In this document: in pieces, positions 11,493 to 63,748 of the stretch
How positions within the stretch are numbered: position 1 is the first letter of the stretch
Layout of the letters: the number at the start of each line of letters is the position of its first letter
Source: Escherichia phage AV122
Sequence record: OR352952.1
Length of the DNA: 64,000 bases
Direction: 5' to 3' (one strand)
The notes under the pieces: model-generated
Database searches by the model: none
What the model saw: the letters and a program-made list of their open reading frames with translations, nothing else
Told to the model about the DNA's origin: nothing
Made by a program: the position numbers and the translations under genes

Positions 11493-13309
11493 TACTGACT
11501 CATCCATTCTTTGCGAAGGTCAGCATTATCTCCCATGAGCATTTCAAAAAGCTCTTTCCAATTCTCAGGAAGTTTAACAACATCATATACTGGGTTTTGA
11601 ATCATCTCACGATATTCAGATTTTTCCAAAGAGCCAAGTCCCTTAATATAACGGATGCTATGTTTAGGTAGAGCATCTTTGGCACTCTCATATTCAGCGA
11701 CTGTATAAAACCATTCTTGTTTTTTACCGACCTGAGCGATGATTACAGGAGTTTTGACGAAACGAATTCTTCCTTGTTCAAACAGTTCTGGCCAATTACT
11801 AAAAAATCCGAGCAGAGAAGGATAAATGCTCCCTAGACCATCATGGTCAGCATCAGTCATAATAGCAATATTATGATAATTCAAGTTTTCAGCTTTTTCA
11901 CCAAGAACTAATCCAGTGATTGCGCAAATGTCAAACAGTTCTTTGTTTTTAAGCATATCGGCATATGACATACCCCAACTGTTGAGAACTTTACCACGCA
12001 ATGGATAACCACCATGAAGTTCTTTATCACGAACATCAATAAGATATCCGATAGCAGAATCACCCTCAGTCAAGAAAAGAGTAGTGTCAGCGTCTTTACC
12101 ACAAAGATTCGCTTTAATATGTTTATGAACCTTAGCTTTAGAAGCCTTTTTAGCTGCTTTAGTTTCTGCTGCTTTTTCTGCCGCCAATTTACGAGCCAAG
12201 GCAGCTTCAATAATTGGCATCAGAATTGCTTCATTATTTAGAATAGCGCGTGAAATCTTTTTAGCGTCAAGTTGAATATGACTACGAATTTCGCCAAATG
12301 GAGAAGTCAAACGCTCTTTAGTTTGAGAATCAAATCGCATGTTTTTCATATCACGAACAAACATAACGATAGTCAAACATTCTTTAACACGCGCTTTAGT
12401 TACATCAATTTTGAACTTACGTTTGATTTGTGGAATAAGGTCTTCACAAATATCATCCATAACACAGTCAATGTGATGGCCACCATTCTTAGTATGAATG
12501 TTATTGACGTATGTTAATTGACGAAAACCATCCGGTGAACGACCAACCGCAATAGAACAATTTTCTTGTTCTTGAACAATAGCATGCTCATCATATTGGC
12601 GTGCATATTTCTTAAAATTACCCTGAACCTTTTTACCATTAAAGGTAAATTGAATATCAGGATAAACTACTGCAAGTGTCTGGAGGCGATCTAATGTAAT
12701 GTCAAGATAAACTTGAGATAGCTCATTAGTTTCAAATGACATAAAATCAGGAATGAAAGTAACACGTGTTCCTTTCCATTTTCCAGGAATAGTTTCCCAT
12801 GATTTATTTTCCATGCCATTTGAACAACGAACTACAATATTATTTTGACCGTCGCCAGTTTCACCGACAAACATCACAGAAAAAATGTTTGTCAAACTAG
12901 AACCAACACCGTTCATACCGCCGGTGACGCGTTCTTTATCATCACCGAAGTTACCACCTGCTTTTGGAATAGTCCACGCAGCAACAGGACCAGGAATTTC
13001 TTCACCTGTAGGTGTTTTAACCATCGCCTGTGGAATACCACGACCGTTATCTTCAACTGTTACTTGATTGTTTTTAATAGTAACATTAATTTTATTTGCG
13101 AATTTAAACTTAGTACGAATACCTTCATCTACTGAGTTATCGATAATTTCATCAATAAGCTTAACAAGACCAGGTACATACTGAACACTTTCCCATTTAC
13201 CAAACAGAAAGCGCTCATGCATTTCATTAGCAGAAGAGCCAATGTACATGCCGCTACGCTTTTTGATATGTTCAATATCGCTCAGAATTTTAATTTCATT
13301 CTTAATCAT
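11492..13309 (-). CDS. 39: DNA topoisomerase II large subunit (GyrB-like ATPase), uninterrupted
   Basis: 605 aa from ATG 13309 (track start is GTG one codon upstream); GHKL ATPase plus TOPRIM in one continuous frame. Confidence 0.9.
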   Translation of the reverse strand: MIKNEIKILSDIEHIKKRSGMYIGSSANEMHERFLFGKWESVQYVPGLVKLIDEIIDNSVDEGIRTKFKFANKINVTIKNNQVTVEDNGRGIPQAMVKTPTGEEIPGPVAAWTIPKAGGNFGDDKERVTGGMNGVGSSLTNIFSVMFVGETGDGQNNIVVRCSNGMENKSWETIPGKWKGTRVTFIPDFMSFETNELSQVYLDITLDRLQTLAVVYPDIQFTFNGKKVQGNFKKYARQYDEHAIVQEQENCSIAVGRSPDGFRQLTYVNNIHTKNGGHHIDCVMDDICEDLIPQIKRKFKIDVTKARVKECLTIVMFVRDMKNMRFDSQTKERLTSPFGEIRSHIQLDAKKISRAILNNEAILMPIIEAALARKLAAEKAAETKAAKKASKAKVHKHIKANLCGKDADTTLFLTEGDSAIGYLIDVRDKELHGGYPLRGKVLNSWGMSYADMLKNKELFDICAITGLVLGEKAENLNYHNIAIMTDADHDGLGSIYPSLLGFFSNWPELFEQGRIRFVKTPVIIAQVGKKQEWFYTVAEYESAKDALPKHSIRYIKGLGSLEKSEYREMIQNPVYDVVKLPENWKELFEMLMGDNADLRKEWMSQ

Positions 13310-13363
13310 CACTTATCCTCGTTTGGTTTCGGGAATATTATACTCCAATAATCATAAAGCTAG

Positions 13364-31780: not shown

Positions 31781-32629
31781 TTAATCAACTGCTATTGGAT
31801 GAATAGCATTAAACTTATGAAATGCTTCTGATTTTTCTTTACGCGAAACACACATGCGAAGAACCTTTAATGGCTCGTCTTCTTCACCCAACGATTTTCG
31901 TTTTTCAATATTCGACGTTTTCCAACGAGCTTGCTCTGGAAACTCTCTATTGATTTGCTCAAGCGCTCTATTATGTTTAGAATTACTACGAATTGAACTA
32001 CACCCACCAGGAGCTTGCGCTTTACCTGATACAACCAGATATTTGAACAAGGCCAAATGCGGATAACCTTGATTAATTAAATTGAGAAATGCATACATAT
32101 CTTCGCACAAATCAATTTTTCCATACCCAATTTGTTCTGTCGTAAGTTTTCCAAGGTCATACCATGTATTCGTGAATCCATATGAATTTTCACGATAATT
32201 ACCCCAAGATGAAGTAATTTTAAAAATTGGTAGGCGAGCATGACCGTGATAATACCCGCAATCCATGGCATCTTCGACGTATTGAATCAATTCATAGAAC
32301 TGTTCACGGGTTAATTGATTGACTTTATCCACACAACGACGGTCATCTCTTTTTCGCATTGAACTCATACGAATAGTAGTATCATCGTCAATCATCCAGA
32401 TTCGTTGGCCTGCATACATATCAGTAATTGCTTTACGAGTACCAGCAATTCCATTTACATCATCAGGAATAGTTATAATTTTAGCTCTAGACCCATAGGC
32501 ATCATAATAAGCTTTTTCTTCGTGTTCACGTACTACAATATGTGGTTCATAATCAGTCGGAAACATATCAAGGGCAGAAACTGCCCCGACACGCTGATAA
32601 CTTGGAATTACGAATTGAATCATTTCCAC
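31781..32629 (-). CDS. putative GT-A-fold glycosyltransferase (candidate DNA hydroxymethylcytosine sugar transferase)
   Basis: 282 aa; N-terminal IPSYQR and WMIDDDTT (DxD) motifs; occupies the uvsX-42 slot that holds beta-gt (351 aa) in T4. Confidence 0.5.
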   Translation of the reverse strand: MEMIQFVIPSYQRVGAVSALDMFPTDYEPHIVVREHEEKAYYDAYGSRAKIITIPDDVNGIAGTRKAITDMYAGQRIWMIDDDTTIRMSSMRKRDDRRCVDKVNQLTREQFYELIQYVEDAMDCGYYHGHARLPIFKITSSWGNYRENSYGFTNTWYDLGKLTTEQIGYGKIDLCEDMYAFLNLINQGYPHLALFKYLVVSGKAQAPGGCSSIRSNSKHNRALEQINREFPEQARWKTSNIEKRKSLGEEDEPLKVLRMCVSRKEKSEAFHKFNAIHPIAVD

Positions 32630-40910: not shown

Positions 40911-42593
40911 TTAAACCATTACAGTAAATCGACCAACTTTCTTCATTTGAAGATGCTGACCGTATTCTTGCGGGTCATGGTCTTTATGCGAAATTATAAA
41001 AACATTAGTGTTTTTCATTGAATTTATAATATTAGCTACACCTTTAATACCTTCAGCATCAAATGACCCGTCAAACACTTCATCGAGTATTAATGTACTA
41101 ATACTAACACCAGATACAATAGAAGCAATATCACGCCAAGTAAATAAAAGAGCAATATCAATTCGCGCTTTTTCACCTTCACTAAATGAAGCATAACTAA
41201 AATCTTCGCGACCGCGGGATTTAATTGTCTCATTAAATTCTTCATCTAATGTAAACACATAATCCGCTTCCATTATTTTAAGATAATGGTTAATCTGCTT
41301 ATTGAATAATGGAATGTACTTTTTAATAATAGCACCTTTAATACCAGAATCTTTGAGCATATCAGTCAAAATTCCTCTATGGTATTTTTCCATTACTAAA
41401 TTAGTTTTTGTCTTAACAATTTTATCAAGTTCTTCTTGAAGCAGTGCTATTTCATCAGCATGGTCAATAAACTCGGATGATGCTTTTTCTATAGCTGCTT
41501 TAACTTTTTTAGCTTTATCTACTGTCGTGATTAGAGATTGCTTTTTATTGCGAATATCATTTGCCAATGATTGTTGAGTTTTAATATTATCTCGGTATTC
41601 ATCAACAAGAACTTTTAAATTATCACGATGTGTTGAAAGCTGTTCAAATGAATGCGTACATTCAGAAACTTTATCTTTAATTTTAGAAACAACTTTATCA
41701 CCGGAACTTAATTGTGACAAACAGGTTGGACATAATCCACCTTCGTGATACATATTAATGACTTTATTATATGAGTCAATTTTTGATTTAATTAAAACTG
41801 CTTCTTGACCGATTTTATTAAATGCATCAGTCGGGTCTTCATCCAAAACAATATTAACTAATCTTTCATTAGCTTCTTCTATTTCCGATTTTAGCGTTCT
41901 AGCTTCTTTTGCCAAATCATCGTACATATTTTGCAGACGAGTAAGGTTGTCACCCGTTAATTTTTTCTGGCGTTCAACGTTATCATTATATATTTTAATT
42001 TGTTGGATAATACTATCTTTTTTAACATCAAGCACTTGGTTTTGTGAATTTAATTCACGTATTAGCGCTTTATTAAGCTTATCCATTTCAGCTAATGTTC
42101 CTACCTCAAGCAGGTCTTCCACAAGCTTTCTTCGTGCAGGGGTCGACAAACCCATGAAAGGGGTATACCCTGCTGTACCAAGGACAACAATCTGCTTGAA
42201 ACTGGCATATGACATTCCGATAAGCTGTTCAAATTCTGCTTGGAAATCTTTACTGCTGGCAGATTCATTAAGACGTGTACCGTTAACGGTGATTTCGAAA
42301 ACGTTTGGTTTTTGTCCTCTTTTGATATAGTACTTTTTCTCATCATATTCCATCCACAGTTCAACTAAAAGTTCTTTCTTATTTGTGCTGTTTATTAATT
42401 GACCTTTCTTTACATCACGAAATGGTTTGCCAAAAAGCCCAAATGTGATGGCTTCTAACATAGTAGACTTACCACCGCCATTTCGGCCAGTAATAAGAGT
42501 TTTTTGAACCTTATCTAATTGAATGTCAATAGGATTTCCACCTACTGACATTATATTTTGATACCTAACTCGGTTTAGTTTAAAATTCTTCAC
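40911..42593 (-). CDS. 46: recombination nuclease ATPase subunit (Rad50/SbcC-like)
   Basis: 560 aa (same as T4 gp46); Walker A GRNGGGKST, long coiled coil, signature/D-loop at C-terminus. Confidence 0.9.
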   Translation of the reverse strand: MKNFKLNRVRYQNIMSVGGNPIDIQLDKVQKTLITGRNGGGKSTMLEAITFGLFGKPFRDVKKGQLINSTNKKELLVELWMEYDEKKYYIKRGQKPNVFEITVNGTRLNESASSKDFQAEFEQLIGMSYASFKQIVVLGTAGYTPFMGLSTPARRKLVEDLLEVGTLAEMDKLNKALIRELNSQNQVLDVKKDSIIQQIKIYNDNVERQKKLTGDNLTRLQNMYDDLAKEARTLKSEIEEANERLVNIVLDEDPTDAFNKIGQEAVLIKSKIDSYNKVINMYHEGGLCPTCLSQLSSGDKVVSKIKDKVSECTHSFEQLSTHRDNLKVLVDEYRDNIKTQQSLANDIRNKKQSLITTVDKAKKVKAAIEKASSEFIDHADEIALLQEELDKIVKTKTNLVMEKYHRGILTDMLKDSGIKGAIIKKYIPLFNKQINHYLKIMEADYVFTLDEEFNETIKSRGREDFSYASFSEGEKARIDIALLFTWRDIASIVSGVSISTLILDEVFDGSFDAEGIKGVANIINSMKNTNVFIISHKDHDPQEYGQHLQMKKVGRFTVMV

Positions 42594-42853: not shown

Positions 42854-43040
42854 TATCTAAAATGTTGAAGTTAAAAGATACAGCCCAGTCAGTGCAGACT
42901 GTAACCTTTTTAATACAATTATCTTCAACTTCTAGCGGTTCAAACCAATATTCAATAATTTCTTTATGCCCAATATCATCTTTTACTTCGCATTCAAAAT
43001 GCTGACTCATCATAACATTTTTAAATTCATCAAAAGTCAT
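42777..43040 (-). CDS. hypothetical protein
   Basis: 87-aa ORF, ATGA-type overlap with gene 47. Confidence 0.5.
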   Translation of the reverse strand: MTFDEFKNVMMSQHFECEVKDDIGHKEIIEYWFEPLEVEDNCIKKVTVCTDWAVSFNFNILDNDTPKSLRDMAVSCIKDAYCEVFDI

Positions 43041-44056
43041 TGTGTTGCCTCTACATATAGCTGATTCGCATATTGAATAAGTGCTTCACGGTCAGAATCA
43101 GTGATGTCTGGAATTGCATTAATGTATTCTTCCATCAACGTCTGAAGAGATTGAACTTCAACTTCTTCACTTTCATCTGACTCGACAGAGTTATCAATTT
43201 TTGACACAACTCGTAATGAATGCACAACTTTTTCTAGTTCAGATTCGAACTTCGTTAGATTTTTGTCTACTTCAGTTACTATAACACGTACTGATAGATT
43301 TGTAAAATCTTTATAGTCAATTTTTCCTTTAAATGGATAATGAATTCTACGATGCCAGGTAGTATTGTTTGGAATAAATTCCATTCGTTCTGTTTCTGTA
43401 TCAAACATCCAGAACCCACGAGGGTCATTCTCGTCACCTGCAGTTAGTGTCCATGGTGTCCCAATATATCTGACGTTAGCAGCCTCAGAGATAGTATGGA
43501 AGTGACCAGACCACACTTCTTTATAAGTCTTAAGGAAATCAGGTTCAAGACCGTGAGATTTCATTCCTTTATAAAAATAAAATCCATTCAGTTCCCAGTG
43601 ACCAACACAAAAAGAAGCAGATGAAGTTTTGATGTGTTCAAGAATTTCACCAGTATTTTCTTCACACATCCAAGGAATTAAATCAATTAAACATCCGTCA
43701 AAATCTACTGTAGTAGGCTTATCATATACTTTAACATTAGGATATTTAGCCAAAAGCTCAGTAGAGGCATTTGGATGCATTACATTTTTGTAGTGGAGAT
43801 CGTGATTTCCTACAATAGTATGTAATGTGATTCCAGCGTCATCAAGCATTTGAACTATTTCACGGGCAAACTCCATAGTTTTATGTGTGATTGCTTTTCG
43901 CACATCAAAAATATCACCGTATTGAATCCATACCGTAATTCCATTTTTCTTAGAATATTCTATCGCTTGCTTAATTCCATCAATTTGAATACCGCGAATC
44001 CACTCATCATCAGCTTTAACGCCTAAATGCCAATCACCCAAGTTTAGTATTTTCAT
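43037..44056 (-). CDS. 47: recombination nuclease subunit (Mre11/SbcD-like)
   Basis: 339 aa (same as T4 gp47); calcineurin-like phosphoesterase motifs GDWHLG, GNHD. Confidence 0.9.
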   Translation of the reverse strand: MKILNLGDWHLGVKADDEWIRGIQIDGIKQAIEYSKKNGITVWIQYGDIFDVRKAITHKTMEFAREIVQMLDDAGITLHTIVGNHDLHYKNVMHPNASTELLAKYPNVKVYDKPTTVDFDGCLIDLIPWMCEENTGEILEHIKTSSASFCVGHWELNGFYFYKGMKSHGLEPDFLKTYKEVWSGHFHTISEAANVRYIGTPWTLTAGDENDPRGFWMFDTETERMEFIPNNTTWHRRIHYPFKGKIDYKDFTNLSVRVIVTEVDKNLTKFESELEKVVHSLRVVSKIDNSVESDESEEVEVQSLQTLMEEYINAIPDITDSDREALIQYANQLYVEATQ

Positions 44057-44657
44057 GGTGTCTTTTCCATCCTAATTTAGCTGCTTTTGAAACCAGTTCT
44101 TTAATTTTTCCTTTTGTCCATTCAGGACCAGGAGGTTCATGACATAACATTTGCTTAACTCCGTTATTATACCATTTTTTACCTTTATTATGTGATGAAG
44201 CTTTAAATTTATTTGACCTTCCTTTTACATAACCTTCTGGAATATAAGGCAAAAAGGCAGATTTTCCTGTTAATGGATCATGTGAATGTATATTTCCTTT
44301 ACAATTATGAGAACCATATAATGGATGATTTTGTCCTTTATTATCTCTTCCAAATGAACCTTTTGGAGCAGCATATGACATATTAAAGAATAATGGATTT
44401 TTAACTGCATCATGCAATCGTTGATAATATAACTCGCATTTAATAGCTTCTTCACGCGTATCAAATTCAGCTAAAATGCATGAATCAAATAAGTGAGGAT
44501 TATCTGAAAGCTCTTTATTATAAATTTTCTTATACTTTTTAGATAAAACTGAACCATGATATCCAGCTAAATGCCTATCTAAAGACGTAGATCCAATATA
44601 AAAAGGAGGAAGTTTATCTCCGCTATATATTGTTAAATAAGTTATATATTTTTTCAT
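44034..44657 (-). CDS. GIY-YIG homing-endonuclease-like protein
   Basis: 207 aa; TIY...(8)...FYIGST...R...CILAEFDTREEAIKCE... parallels I-TevI GIY...YVGSA...CSILEEIPYEKDLIIERENFWIKE; also a G-x-NHP-x-YG motif as in Seg proteins. 3' end overlaps gene 47 start. Confidence 0.6.
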   Translation of the reverse strand: MKKYITYLTIYSGDKLPPFYIGSTSLDRHLAGYHGSVLSKKYKKIYNKELSDNPHLFDSCILAEFDTREEAIKCELYYQRLHDAVKNPLFFNMSYAAPKGSFGRDNKGQNHPLYGSHNCKGNIHSHDPLTGKSAFLPYIPEGYVKGRSNKFKASSHNKGKKWYNNGVKQMLCHEPPGPEWTKGKIKELVSKAAKLGWKRHHENTKLG

Positions 44658-44817
44658 ATATCAAGAACCGTCATTGAAATGCAAAATAAAATTATTGAAA
44701 TAAACCCATCTGGTGTGCTAAAGAACCCAATCCAACATGCTCTAGTGAATAGATAAAATGCAAGAAAAAGTATCACATATCCAAGAAATATCATTATATC
44801 AAACTCCGTATAAAGCT

Positions 44818-44835
44818 AAAGGGCCGAAGCCCTTT
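44818..44835 (-). other. CUUCGG-tetraloop hairpin overlapping a-gt stop
   Basis: aaagggc-cgaa-gcccttt. Confidence 0.45.
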
Positions 44836-46036
44836 ATTTTGTAATAATGTCAAACTGTTCTTTAAAGCAGAAGCTTGAATCTTGATGCTGATACAAAAAT
44901 TCATACGCTTTTTCTCGCTCACGGTCATAAAGAGCTCGGTCAGATGACAGTTCTTTAATACGCTCGAATGTTGATTCCATATCATTTTCATCAAACCAAA
45001 TGATACCGCTATCATGTGAGGTCAAAGGAGTATTATCAACACGGAATTTTAAATTTTCGCCAGTAGATTTCCAAAATACCGGAATTGTTCCACATGCACC
45101 AAGCTCGAGATGAGTATATTCTAAAGAACGTTGTAAATATTTTTTATCCAACTTACTCAACTGATAACCAAATCCGGATTTACTCATACGCTCAAGCATT
45201 TCGCTATTTACATAACGGTCAAGAATTTGCGTTGGCAAATTAGGAGCAATTTTAATTTGGTCTACTTGATGAAGACGATAATACTCGTATGGAATTCCTT
45301 TTTCTTTAATAGGAATGAATGCTGGAGAACGTTCCAGACCTTCCATAATAGTACTTAGTCCTGCAGGTTTAAGATGTTTTTCGTGAAAATCAAACATCTG
45401 ATAAAACCCCTTCCATGTAGTCGTACGACCAATCCAACGGTTGACATTCATGTTAATTTCAGAAACATCTTTCCAGTAGGTTGACCGAACCTTCGCAATA
45501 TCCATAGGAGGCTGAAAGTTATATACGGTCGGCGCTTCTTCAATATCATCAAACAGAGAAACAGTTTCTGGATACCATTCTTTCATCAGAACTTTATTAA
45601 AATCACCATTATCAGAATGGCTAAAAATAACATCAGCTCGACGAACAGTTTCTTCTAATCCCAAATTTCGGCGCAAAGAAAGAGAAGAATGGTCATGTTG
45701 ATAAACTACAACACGAACCGAAGGTTTAATGTTATCAATAATTTTTTTATAGTTATTAATAGTGTCTTCTTCAACTGAAGTAGCAGGAACTGAATTGATA
45801 ATTAGAATATCACAATCATTTACCAGCTTAAGTGTTTTATCGTATTCTTTTGCCAATAAAACCGGAATTGAAAATGATTTATAATCATGCGCACAGTTAC
45901 GAGTAAATGATTTATCTTTGGCATAAACCAAAGTTACTTCATGACCATTTTTAATAAACCAATCACGTTGCTCAAGAGAAAATTTAGTTACACCGCAACC
46001 TTCAAGACCTCGAGCCATAAAAATACATACTTTCAT
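44834..46036 (-). CDS. a-gt: DNA alpha-glucosyltransferase
   Basis: 400 aa (same as T4 alpha-gt); MKVCIFMARGLEGCGVTKFSLEQRDWFIKNGHEV... matches T4 alpha-gt as recalled. Confidence 0.9.
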   Translation of the reverse strand: MKVCIFMARGLEGCGVTKFSLEQRDWFIKNGHEVTLVYAKDKSFTRNCAHDYKSFSIPVLLAKEYDKTLKLVNDCDILIINSVPATSVEEDTINNYKKIIDNIKPSVRVVVYQHDHSSLSLRRNLGLEETVRRADVIFSHSDNGDFNKVLMKEWYPETVSLFDDIEEAPTVYNFQPPMDIAKVRSTYWKDVSEINMNVNRWIGRTTTWKGFYQMFDFHEKHLKPAGLSTIMEGLERSPAFIPIKEKGIPYEYYRLHQVDQIKIAPNLPTQILDRYVNSEMLERMSKSGFGYQLSKLDKKYLQRSLEYTHLELGACGTIPVFWKSTGENLKFRVDNTPLTSHDSGIIWFDENDMESTFERIKELSSDRALYDREREKAYEFLYQHQDSSFCFKEQFDIITK

Positions 46037-61752: not shown

Positions 61753-62766
61753 TCATTTATAATAACTTCGGTGGTTTTCAAGATAGACCTTCTCAAGGAA
61801 GTCATCCCAGAAACCCATGTCTACTGTTTTAGGCATACCGTTCTTAGAAGCTTCAGTAGATGCTGCTTCTACTTGATCGACCACATCTTCCAAAAACTCT
61901 TGAACTGTTTTAAATGGATGTTTACCCAACTTCACGTCGAGAATAAATGGAGCATCTTGAAGTGGATAGACTAAGTCACCAGTTTTGTAAATTTCCAATA
62001 GTTGAAGTCCACCACGACAAGCATGACTTAGTGCTTTCCAATCAATGCCTTCATTGGCTTCGGCCTTACGAGCACGTTCACCGTATTCAGCATCTAATTT
62101 GTTCAGTGACTGCTTAAGCTCAATAAGAGAAAGCGTTGTCTGATATTTACGACCCAACACAGTGTAGAACGTTTGTGGGCCTGTTTTCTCATGATTATGG
62201 AACACCCATTCACAGAATTCGTTTTCTGGAAGACGATGCTTAATATCTTCAACTTTAGTACGACGCTGCTTAATGGAACCGTCTTCTTGGTAATCAACCC
62301 ATTGCTCAGGGATTTGATTAACTACTTTCAATACATCACGTAATGCAGCCAAACGAGAACCCTTGACGCCGTATTTAGAAGCTTGCTTGCGGACATATCC
62401 TAAATATGATTTCATGTTAGTCGTATAAAAACGAGAACGGTTGTCTTGAATAAACTTCCACACATCAGGCAAATCGGATTTAACCACTAGTTCAGGTGGA
62501 GTGTGAAGCATATCCAACGCTACAGTTTCACCATCTGCTGCTAATTTAAAGAAATATTTAAGACTGTATAGTTCATGGTCAATATCATCTTTAGTGTTTT
62601 TAGATGATGTATTGTTAGTATTTTTACTCATATGCTCTTTAACATTTCCGATAAGAATATCGCGAGCAGGAGGAACAAAGATTTCTTTAAAATCTACATC
62701 AGATTCTGGGGTAGAAGTTCCATAAAGATGACTACCAAAATAGCTTTTCATTACTGTTTTCATCAT
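61753..62766 (-). CDS. predicted Pol-beta-superfamily nucleotidyltransferase
   Basis: 337 aa; N-terminal GS-x10-DVD motif (YFGSHLYGTSTPESDVDF) characteristic of the NTase fold; downstream acidic residues. Confidence 0.55.
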   Translation of the reverse strand: MMKTVMKSYFGSHLYGTSTPESDVDFKEIFVPPARDILIGNVKEHMSKNTNNTSSKNTKDDIDHELYSLKYFFKLAADGETVALDMLHTPPELVVKSDLPDVWKFIQDNRSRFYTTNMKSYLGYVRKQASKYGVKGSRLAALRDVLKVVNQIPEQWVDYQEDGSIKQRRTKVEDIKHRLPENEFCEWVFHNHEKTGPQTFYTVLGRKYQTTLSLIELKQSLNKLDAEYGERARKAEANEGIDWKALSHACRGGLQLLEIYKTGDLVYPLQDAPFILDVKLGKHPFKTVQEFLEDVVDQVEAASTEASKNGMPKTVDMGFWDDFLEKVYLENHRSYYK

Positions 62767-63224
62767 TCAGCCTTATATTCAATAACAGGACATACTTTAA
62801 CTTTACGAGCTTTTAAAAATTCAACGATAACCGATTTCTTGGGTTGAATAGGAGGTAAACCTTTATACGCCCTATCAATATTTTCTACGTGTAAAGCATA
62901 ATCCTTTTTCCATTTATAATCTTTATATTTTTCACGCAAATGTGCAGGAATAACAAATGAACCGATAATAAGTAAAACAACCAAAAGCGCAAGTATAAAT
63001 GCTGATGGAAGCAAAGTCCATAAACTACCAAAAATAATCCAACGTTGTAGGCTTTCTGCACAAATAATTGTTAGCCCTACGAGTATAGCACATCCAAAAA
63101 TAGAAACGAAAAATGTAGGAATGGCAATAGACCAAAAATATGCGCACAGTGTCTTAGGTCGTTGCCATTCATCGTTAAACATTTTGAATAATTTATAGTG
63201 CCAAGAGTTTTCATTAATAATCAT
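62763..63224 (-). CDS. integral membrane protein
   Basis: 153 aa; three to four predicted TM helices; ATGA overlap with the NTase gene. Confidence 0.55.
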   Translation of the reverse strand: MIINENSWHYKLFKMFNDEWQRPKTLCAYFWSIAIPTFFVSIFGCAILVGLTIICAESLQRWIIFGSLWTLLPSAFILALLVVLLIIGSFVIPAHLREKYKDYKWKKDYALHVENIDRAYKGLPPIQPKKSVIVEFLKARKVKVCPVIEYKAE

Positions 63225-63226
63225 AA

Positions 63227-63748
63227 TTATCCTTTCATTGAAGGCGTAACAGTTGTTAAATACTTAATCATAGCTTCAGCTTCTGATTTTGATAGTGAAA
63301 TTTCTTCACCGTTTTGGCGAATAGAAACAAAATCTGGATGACGATCACCACCAGCTTTTAAAACACACATATAAGTATCAGCTTCGCCTTCAATATTTGA
63401 AATGATTGAAGCAGTTCCACATGAATGCGGTTTTTGATAAATCAATACAGCTTTTCTTCCACCATTTGACTGTTCATAGGCTTTTAATACATCAAGCAAA
63501 TCAGTTCTTTTATCAATAGCTAAGATGTTATTTTCATCTTCAATATTAAATCCTTCGGATACTTCATAAAGAGTTACCCATAAATCACCGATGTCAATAA
63601 CAGCATTTACTTTTCCACGGCTTTCAAGAGTATGACAAATTTTCTTGATTTCGTCATAACTCATTTTAATAATATCATCTCCTTGACTAAGGAAGATGTC
63701 ATTTTTAAATTCAACACGAATTAAACCACTTTCACTTGAAATAAACAT
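63227..63748 (-). CDS. hypothetical protein, paralog of the partial ORF at window end
   Basis: 173 aa; C-terminus ...VSIRQNGEEISLSKSEAEAMIKYLTTVTPSMKG aligns with ...VSIRQIDDFRSHIITLNKDEAIALKTYLDSVIPTMISK. Confidence 0.6.
   Translation of the reverse strand: MFISSESGLIRVEFKNDIFLSQGDDIIKMSYDEIKKICHTLESRGKVNAVIDIGDLWVTLYEVSEGFNIEDENNILAIDKRTDLLDVLKAYEQSNGGRKAVLIYQKPHSCGTASIISNIEGEADTYMCVLKAGGDRHPDFVSIRQNGEEISLSKSEAEAMIKYLTTVTPSMKG

Follow-up and report, generated by a model that had tools for sequence, protein, structure and literature searches.

The stretch of DNA analysed here, 64,000 nucleotides from Escherichia phage AV122 (accession OR352952.1; hereafter the window), carries on its minus strand a stand-alone open reading frame (ORF) of 207 codons, ORF207, inserted between the conserved genes 47.1 and 47 of a T4-like phage. 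Our best explanation, to which we assign a probability of about 0.6, is that ORF207 is a Seg-type GIY-YIG endonuclease gene that is actively homing and has its target at the 47.1/47 junction. The narrower statement that the gene encodes a Seg-type GIY-YIG endonuclease is much firmer and we hold it with high confidence. We infer the nuclease activity, the location of the cut, the immunity of the genome that carries the gene and its mobility from sequence comparisons, which are laid out below.

The gene order on the minus strand is a-gt, the 47.1 homolog, ORF207 and gene 47, and gene 47 itself is uninterrupted. The T4 reference has no gene between 47.1 and 47, which overlap each other directly (ATGA), and alignment of both junctions shows a clean 601-bp insertion in the window relative to T4. 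The start codon of ORF207 and the stop codon of 47.1 overlap as ATGA, the start of gene 47 falls inside the 3' end of ORF207, and the ORF207 stop is the TGA contained in gene 47 codons 7-8 (GGT GAT, which encode the Gly-Asp of phosphoesterase motif I). It follows from the junction alignment that ORF207 occupies the translational start context used by gene 47 in T4. Because ORF207 and gene 47 each start with Met-Lys, a 7-bp repeat, ATGAAAA, is found at both ends of the insert (44651-44657 and 44050-44056), and the placement of the insert is ambiguous within this repeat. A scan of the whole window against Rfam returned no family and hence no intron context for ORF207. The original prediction of this gene, made from the letters of the sequence, proved exact in coordinates, strand, ATG start and length, as well as in the overlap of its 3' end with gene 47, which measures 23 nt. 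Its placement of the gene between 47 and a-gt needs a small correction: gene 47 does adjoin, and the immediate upstream neighbour is 47.1, with a-gt one gene further away. It was also right that this is not one of the T4 seg loci.

The assignment of the protein draws its strength from profile and fold comparisons with the Seg proteins and I-TevI of T4, the sequences of which were taken from NC_000866. An HHalign comparison of a 56-member alignment of the ORF207 family with an alignment of T4 SegA-E and SegG gave a probability of 98.5% (E 2e-15, 171 columns), and the same family against SegG alone gave 96.5% (E 9.5e-10, 27% identity over 109 aa). In pairwise alignments the nearest T4 proteins were SegE (28% over 193 aa) and SegG (27% over 109 aa), while I-TevI was detectable at the fold level only. 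The AlphaFold2 model of ORF207 has a pLDDT of 87.4 for the whole protein and of more than 94 for the N-terminal domain, its best structural neighbours are I-TevI, UvrC, Eco29kI and EndoII, and it contains the three-stranded sheet flanked by helices, in the order beta-beta-alpha-alpha-beta-alpha, of the GIY-YIG fold. These results bear out the earlier description of the gene as GIY-YIG endonuclease-like: a GIY-YIG domain is present, and the gene is not a conserved non-nuclease gene of all T-even phages. A search of a large protein collection returned 170 homologs, the closest similar over the full length and many others alike in the first ~115 residues only; 17 of the 56 aligned homologs match Pfam GIY-YIG at E <= 0.01 and 27 of the 56 match NUMOD3. 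The protein has no match in NCBIfam. Across the 56-sequence alignment E75 and N92 are invariant and align with the Glu and Asn of I-TevI (E75, N90) and of the Seg proteins, and Y7, Y20, I21, G22, G35, K40 and R68 are at least 90% conserved. The catalytic pattern originally read as GIY...YIG...R...E therefore stands in part: Y20-I21-G22, R28 and E75 are present, but the first motif is I5-T6-Y7 and not a literal GIY, and the equivalence of R28 with R27 of I-TevI is unproven. The parallel that had been drawn between FDSCILAEFDTREEAIKCE and FECSILEEIPYEKDLIIERE of I-TevI was reproduced, column for column, by a MAFFT alignment with the real I-TevI sequence. Judged by what can be computed from its sequence, ORF207 would belong to the Seg endonucleases in every respect except the Pfam threshold and the position of the catalytic Arg, two points to which we return below.

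Existing annotations by depositors call ORF207 a 'putative homing endonuclease', an 'HNH endonuclease' or a 'hypothetical protein'. The best PHROG match, phrog_10820 (1e-94), is labelled 'HNH endonuclease', and a second, phrog_314 (5e-18), is labelled 'homing endonuclease'. That ORF207 is an HNH endonuclease, as RefSeq records and the PHROG 10820 label would have it, we consider to have a practically negligible chance of being correct: what speaks for it are database labels, while no HNH family of Pfam is matched even at E <= 1, the fold and the profile matches are those of GIY-YIG proteins, and other depositors call relatives of ORF207 'GIY-YIG homing endonuclease'. The mislabel is systematic in PHROG 10820 and in RefSeq (for example NC_054911 and NC_054933), and it spreads the error across the phage genomes of RefSeq.

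The 47.1/47 junction is polymorphic among T4-like phages, in agreement with the earlier remark that genes of this type differ among T-even isolates. The insert is present in 68 of ~533 GenBank records of T4-like phages, or ~13% at this locus. These numbers come from a query with the 1.5-kb region, which matched 525 phage records including the 68 with the insert, and from a 106-nt probe across the uninterrupted T4 junction, which was fully covered in 465 records; the counts of 68 and 465 include GenBank/RefSeq duplicates. Alignment of the locus verified 7 occupied sites (the window and 6 further genomes) and 13 empty ones. No confirmed copy of ORF207 was found among the viral contigs of IMG/VR.

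The occupied and the uninterrupted alleles are distinguished by a small cluster of silent changes at the start of gene 47. Codons 3-6 read ATA CTA AAC TTG in the window and ATT TTA AAT TTA in T4-type empty sites, and the next 90 nt of gene 47 are identical to T4. We aligned ~3.3 kb of flanking sequence from genomes of three kinds, 7 occupied, 8 empty of the T4 type and 5 further empty ones, and the only differences fixed between the occupied and the T4-type empty classes were at 44048, 44042 and 44039; position 44047 is also fixed except in RB14. Dozens of other polymorphisms in the flanks, including two deeply divergent a-gt haplotypes, are common to both classes. Over 120 nt, each of the 68 occupied right junctions has at least 97.5% identity to that of the window, where a T4-type junction would score 96.7%, and a direct check of the least similar one, that of GEP001, found all four variant bases; the four silent sites and the insert are completely linked. 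On the other side, ~454 empty records carry T4-type codons 3-6, and the variant bases occur without the insert in nine records (eight phages, Ec_YwIITB1 and SHFML-26 among them) that have in common a private base of 47.1, C at 44762; a precise deletion between the two ATGAAAA repeats would yield such a variant-codon empty allele, and this is possibly their origin. A replicate of the pattern exists in Mosigvirus, where the occupied site L023 and its empty relatives have 5 synonymous differences in codons 3-6, followed by 23 identical nucleotides.

Because a homing endonuclease must spare its own genome, and because no other distinction between the two classes exists within ~1.6 kb on each side, the most economical proposal is a recognition site that would reach across the 47.1/47 junction and the opening codons of gene 47, where the conserved MKILxxGD(W/L)H of phosphoesterase motif I is encoded. 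Immunity would then be provided by the insertion together with the four silent changes.

The association with gene 47 extends well beyond the close relatives of the window. Full-length homologs with 50-73% identity occur at three Mosigvirus loci, in Serratia phage LC53 (Winklervirus), in Aeromonas phage L9-6 (Biquartavirus), in Erwinia phage FBB1 and in two metagenomic lineages, and all ten of the full-length homolog loci examined, from at least five genera with Tequatrovirus among them, lie directly upstream of gene 47, with an overlap of 23, 14, 4 or 1 nt or with a 121-nt spacer. An eleventh case, in a Klebsiella phage, is known by annotation only. In Mosigvirus the endonuclease gene replaces 47.1 rather than following it, and close relatives have 47.1 without the endonuclease gene. 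The percent identities of the endonuclease and of gp47 to the window copies were 61/71, 64/69, 65/76, 70/70, 50/50, 73/74, 61/66 and 64/67, a correlation of r ~0.86 over eight pairs by hand calculation that is partly driven by the Aeromonas pair. Since the identity of the endonuclease tracks that of gp47, ORF207 is long established at the gene 47 locus and did not arrive there recently from a different genus. Within the window it has no paralog by a search with the family profile, and tblastn found no homolog (E < 1e-5) of T4 segA, segF, mobA, mobB, mobD or I-TevII, with the flanking genes 56, uvsX, a-gt, 55, nrdG and nrdC.11 present; no Seg-type gene other than ORF207 was thus detected in the 64 kb.

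The C-terminal half of the protein is presumed to be the part that recognizes DNA, on the modular analogy of I-TevI and because this half is exchanged among relatives. In the models it consists of a pair of similar small beta units, both of which end in P-E-G/W-x-K-G, and then a helix, and by sequence comparison it has PEG(Y/F)VKG and W(Y/V)NNG in common with SegE. The G-x-N-H-P-x-Y-G motif pointed out in the original prediction is real and nearly invariant among close homologs. It aligns with SGETHPAK of SegG and with residues 171-196 of I-TevI, a NUMOD3-like segment of the DNA-binding region, and we thus take it to be a motif of the linker or DNA-binding module and not a part of the catalytic domain. 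In 27 of the 56 family members, for example Yersinia phage TG1 gp009, IME281 and Bp7, NUMOD3 repeats replace the C-terminal half behind the same catalytic domain, which is 45-70% identical to ORF207 over the first ~115 residues. The genomic context of one of these NUMOD3-type relatives was examined, that of TG1, which lies upstream of topoisomerase II and not of gene 47; this location, together with the swapped C-terminus, fits a C-terminal half that sets target specificity.

Purifying selection acts on ORF207, and its copy in the window is intact; both its conservation and its low dN/dS show that it is not a chance reading frame. There are 68 GenBank records at 90% or higher amino acid identity, 50 of them at least 99% identical to the window protein. 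Relative to the copy of PhiZZ23 we counted 9 synonymous differences and 1 nonsynonymous difference (dN/dS 0.03), and relative to a 61%-identical Mosigvirus copy dN was 0.34 with dS saturated, which places dN/dS at or below 0.17. The most divergent Tequatrovirus copy, that of Escherichia phage GEP001 (L045:1651-2274), has 24 nucleotide differences, among them a GGA-to-TGA nonsense change at residue 184; it is annotated as a 183-aa 'HNH endonuclease' and may be decaying. A dN/dS of 0.32 obtained for this copy was discarded because the in-frame stop disturbs the protein-guided alignment. Frame disruptions seen by tblastn in two or three records (ESh36, ZCEC15, ERS-1) may be sequencing errors. KNP1 and KNP5 were considered as internally deleted copies and rejected as evidence of decay; in KNP1, an UNVERIFIED record, the gap consists of a run of N.

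The mechanism that we propose from these observations is as follows. ORF207 would represent a lineage specific to the 5' end of gene 47, with a nuclease at the N-terminus and DNA recognition at the C-terminus. The gene is probably co-transcribed with 47.1, 47 and 46, and its translation is probably coupled to that of 47.1, in the manner of gene 47 in T4; the translation of gene 47 may in turn be coupled to that of ORF207. In a co-infection, the enzyme would bind and cut the T4-type 47.1/47 junction of a phage without the insert, or DNA close by, at a site that probably includes gene 47 codons 1-8 (MKILxxGDWH). The break would be repaired by phage recombination on the insert-bearing template, and the 601-bp gene would be copied into the recipient with adjacent bases. 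The genome that carries the gene would be spared since the insertion splits the site and the four synonymous substitutions in codons 3-6 alter it.

A number of points weigh against this explanation, some at the level of the protein and others at that of the target. Pfam GIY-YIG (PF01541) matches ORF207 residues 4-84 at E 3e-4, but the score of 21.4 bits falls under the gathering cut-off of 22.6; the shortfall is small and counts for less than the results of the profile-profile and fold comparisons. The family has K, R, N or E in the column of R28, Arg is missing from that position in T4 SegA-E, and R27 of I-TevI lies in an insertion of the alignment; K40 and R68 offer almost invariant alternatives for the catalytic Arg position. 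PDB sequence searches with the protein and with the family profile returned nothing relevant and no solved structure, the C-terminal half has no Pfam match and its separate model no structural neighbour, and the literature searched contains no experiment, biochemical or genetic, on cleavage or homing by ORF207. As for the target, the T4 Seg enzymes often cut tens to hundreds of base pairs from their own genes (~200-300 bp for SegF and SegG), and the cut of ORF207 need not be at the junction. It is accordingly conceivable, although unlikely in our judgement, that ORF207 is an active Seg-type homing endonuclease that cuts elsewhere, whether deeper in gene 47, at 47.1/a-gt or at another place, and that the silent changes are a remnant of the donor's gene 47 that hitch-hikes because it lies no more than 18 nt from the insert. 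The variant codons 3-5 (ATACTAAAC, that is ATA CTA AAC) are also those of the Mosigvirus empty site L022, which suggests import from a diverged donor, and physical linkage alone would keep sites 8-18 nt from the insert, so the substitutions could be donor sequence carried along with it. Set against this, the flanks contain no other fixed difference, and self-immunity to any cut within ~1.6 kb must therefore stem from the insertion or from the four sites; moreover, the same synonymous cluster in codons 3-6 is present in the independent Mosigvirus lineage.

Two other explanations concern the state of the gene rather than its target. ORF207 could be old, mostly vertically inherited and no longer selfish, having been domesticated for phage exclusion or for the coupling or regulation of gp47 translation, with repeated loss accounting for its patchiness. 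The co-divergence with gp47 across genera fits vertical inheritance with losses and counts in this respect against active homing, and the purifying selection and the overlap with gene 47, perhaps with translational coupling, point the same way; in addition, according to PMC13096335, SegB promotes segmental amplification of anti-defence loci, so that a Seg enzyme can have a role beyond homing. We nevertheless find domestication rather improbable. Precise loss should leave the variant codons behind, and ~454 empty records are T4-type at codons 3-6 against ~9 that are variant; the flanking haplotypes are fully shuffled relative to the presence of the insert; swapping of the C-terminus among relatives is typical of mobile endonucleases; and co-divergence is also expected of an element that homes only among close relatives. 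The idea of an inactive, decaying remnant, for which one may cite the nonsense codon of GEP001, the frame disruptions in ESh36, ZCEC15 and ERS-1 and the variable column of the canonical Arg, seems to us very improbable, given that the window holds an intact copy whose protein is the same as that of many other records, that the ratios of dN to dS are low with the active-site Tyr, Glu and Asn conserved, that the frame disruptions may be sequencing errors and that the apparent deletion in KNP1 is an assembly gap. Active homing with a target at the 47.1/47 junction is thus the reading that we prefer.

The coordinates of ORF207, its parts and its neighbours are collected in Table 1.

Table 1. Features of the 47.1/47 region, numbered as in the window
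Feature	Position	Strand	Description
ORF207	44034..44657	-	Seg-type GIY-YIG homing endonuclease gene (putative), free-standing; 207 aa, ATG to TGA
N-terminal catalytic domain	44343..44657	-	Residues 1-105, GIY-YIG fold; Y7, Y20-I-G22, Y33, K40, R68, E75, N92
C-terminal half	44037..44342	-	Residues 106-207; presumed DNA-binding/target recognition; GxNHPLYG, two small beta units, terminal helix
Insertion relative to T4 47.1/47 junction	44057..44657	-	601 bp, from T4 alignment
ORF207/gene 47 overlap	44034..44056	-	23 nt, ORF207 3' end on gene 47 5' end
Four synonymous sites, gene 47 codons 3-6	44039..44048 (44048, 44047, 44042, 44039)	-	Candidate immunity/target-site polymorphism
Gene 47	43037..44056	-	Pfam Metallophos and T4 annotation; SbcD/Mre11-like recombination nuclease subunit; predicted target gene
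47.1 homolog	44654..44794	-	46-aa predicted membrane protein; phrog_6693, 1.5e-31
a-gt	44834..46036	-	Pfam AGT, E 4e-237
Terminator-like hairpin after a-gt	44817-44836	-	From sequence only
MotA-box-like GCTTTA and TATAAT	44816-44811 and 44798-44793	-	12-nt spacer; consensus matches only

The hairpin, the MotA-box-like element and the TATAAT (44793..44836) form a stretch that is identical in T4, and a possible middle promoter at this place would feed 47.1, ORF207 and 47. No late promoter (TATAAATA) was found in 43900-45100, and a sigma-70 promoter scan gave no excess over shuffled sequences.

Several other features were observed in the window and in related phages. The Mosigvirus phage vB_VIPECOMC06 (L033:1458-1556) lacks 47.1, and over its first 35 nt its gene 47 is identical to that of T4 and not to other Mosigvirus, which suggests an inter-genus recombination that ended right at the start of gene 47. 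A second polymorphic endonuclease site lies ~1.3 kb from ORF207, where an annotated 855-nt 'homing endonuclease' gene is found between 46.1 and 46 in Citrobacter phage PhiZZ23 (L043:3808-3901), in Shigella phage SHFML-26 (L047:3116-3306) and in L046:3116-3306; the window has no gene at that site, its 46.1/46.2 adjoining gene 46 (42590-42593). In the place of the segA and beta-gt of T4, between uvsX and gene 42, the window carries a 280-aa ORF (31781-32623, minus strand) that matches Pfam TAGT, the TET-associated glycosyltransferase family, at E 1e-9. Since no homolog of T4 beta-gt was found in the window, the phage probably has a second glucosylation enzyme unlike that of T4. The gene 39 homolog is contained in an ORF of ~605 codons (11495-13312, minus strand) with which T4 gp39 aligns over residues 1-473 of 516 only, and there is no mobA; the large subunit of the topoisomerase may be unsplit here (39 fused with 60), unlike in T4. 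Finally, downstream of nrdC.11 (62763-63748, minus strand), the position that mobD occupies in T4 is taken in the window by a 153-aa ORF without a Pfam match and a 173-aa y05I-like protein (PF24449/PF24448).

If the preferred explanation is right, ORF207 would add to the T-even set a well-delimited Seg endonuclease together with its target, a predicted recognition site at the start of an essential recombination nuclease gene. Target recognition and immunity are directly testable with natural alleles, in that occupied, susceptible-looking and resistant-looking forms differ at only four silent bases. The finding would also explain a hotspot of recombination and marker exclusion at gene 47 in T4-like phages that are now in therapy use, and it corrects the widespread 'HNH endonuclease' mislabel. 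A wider view, which we offer tentatively and at rather worse than even odds, is that ORF207 belongs to an ancient Seg lineage dedicated to the DNA at the very beginning of the Mre11/SbcD-like gene 47, where phosphoesterase motif I (GDxH) is encoded, and that it has co-diverged with this gene in at least five T4-like genera. Tequatrovirus would then hold susceptible empty sites (~454), occupied sites (68) and resistant empty sites (~9, possibly by precise deletion), and the translation of gp47 may depend on that of ORF207.

A comparison with known systems places ORF207 among the free-standing GIY-YIG enzymes of T4. Unlike I-TevI, which is encoded in the intron of T4 td, ORF207 is not intronic. 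Its catalytic domain has no sequence-level homology detectable to that of I-TevI, the only segment that aligns being GxNxPxY/FG, and Pfam detected in ORF207 neither a zinc finger nor a helix-turn-helix domain of the kind found in I-TevI. Literature and full-text searches returned no description of an endonuclease gene at 47.1/47, and the 2010 review of T4 mobile DNA has no element at this site. With T4 SegE, ORF207 has in common full-length similarity, a similar size (205 aa for SegE), the GY(H/L)GS motif and the catalytic Glu and Asn, and both genes are free-standing between conserved genes, SegE next to uvsW. They differ in that ORF207 is located at gene 47 and presumably has a target other than the uvsW region, and in that its extended K-L-P-P-F-Y-I-G-S-T-S motif and its GxNHPLYG linker are both missing from SegE. 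SegG, which is located between genes 32 and 59, is the best match to the catalytic domain, TPPYYYIGS of SegG corresponding to LPPFYIGS of ORF207 and SGETHP to GQNHP, while the two proteins cannot be aligned in their C-terminal halves and their genes occupy different loci. SegG mediates the marker exclusion of T2 gene 32, an intronless homing of the kind proposed here for ORF207. ORF207 is not among the seven seg genes of T4, and it is an addition to the well-known free-standing GIY-YIG homing genes of the T-even phages rather than something conceptually new.

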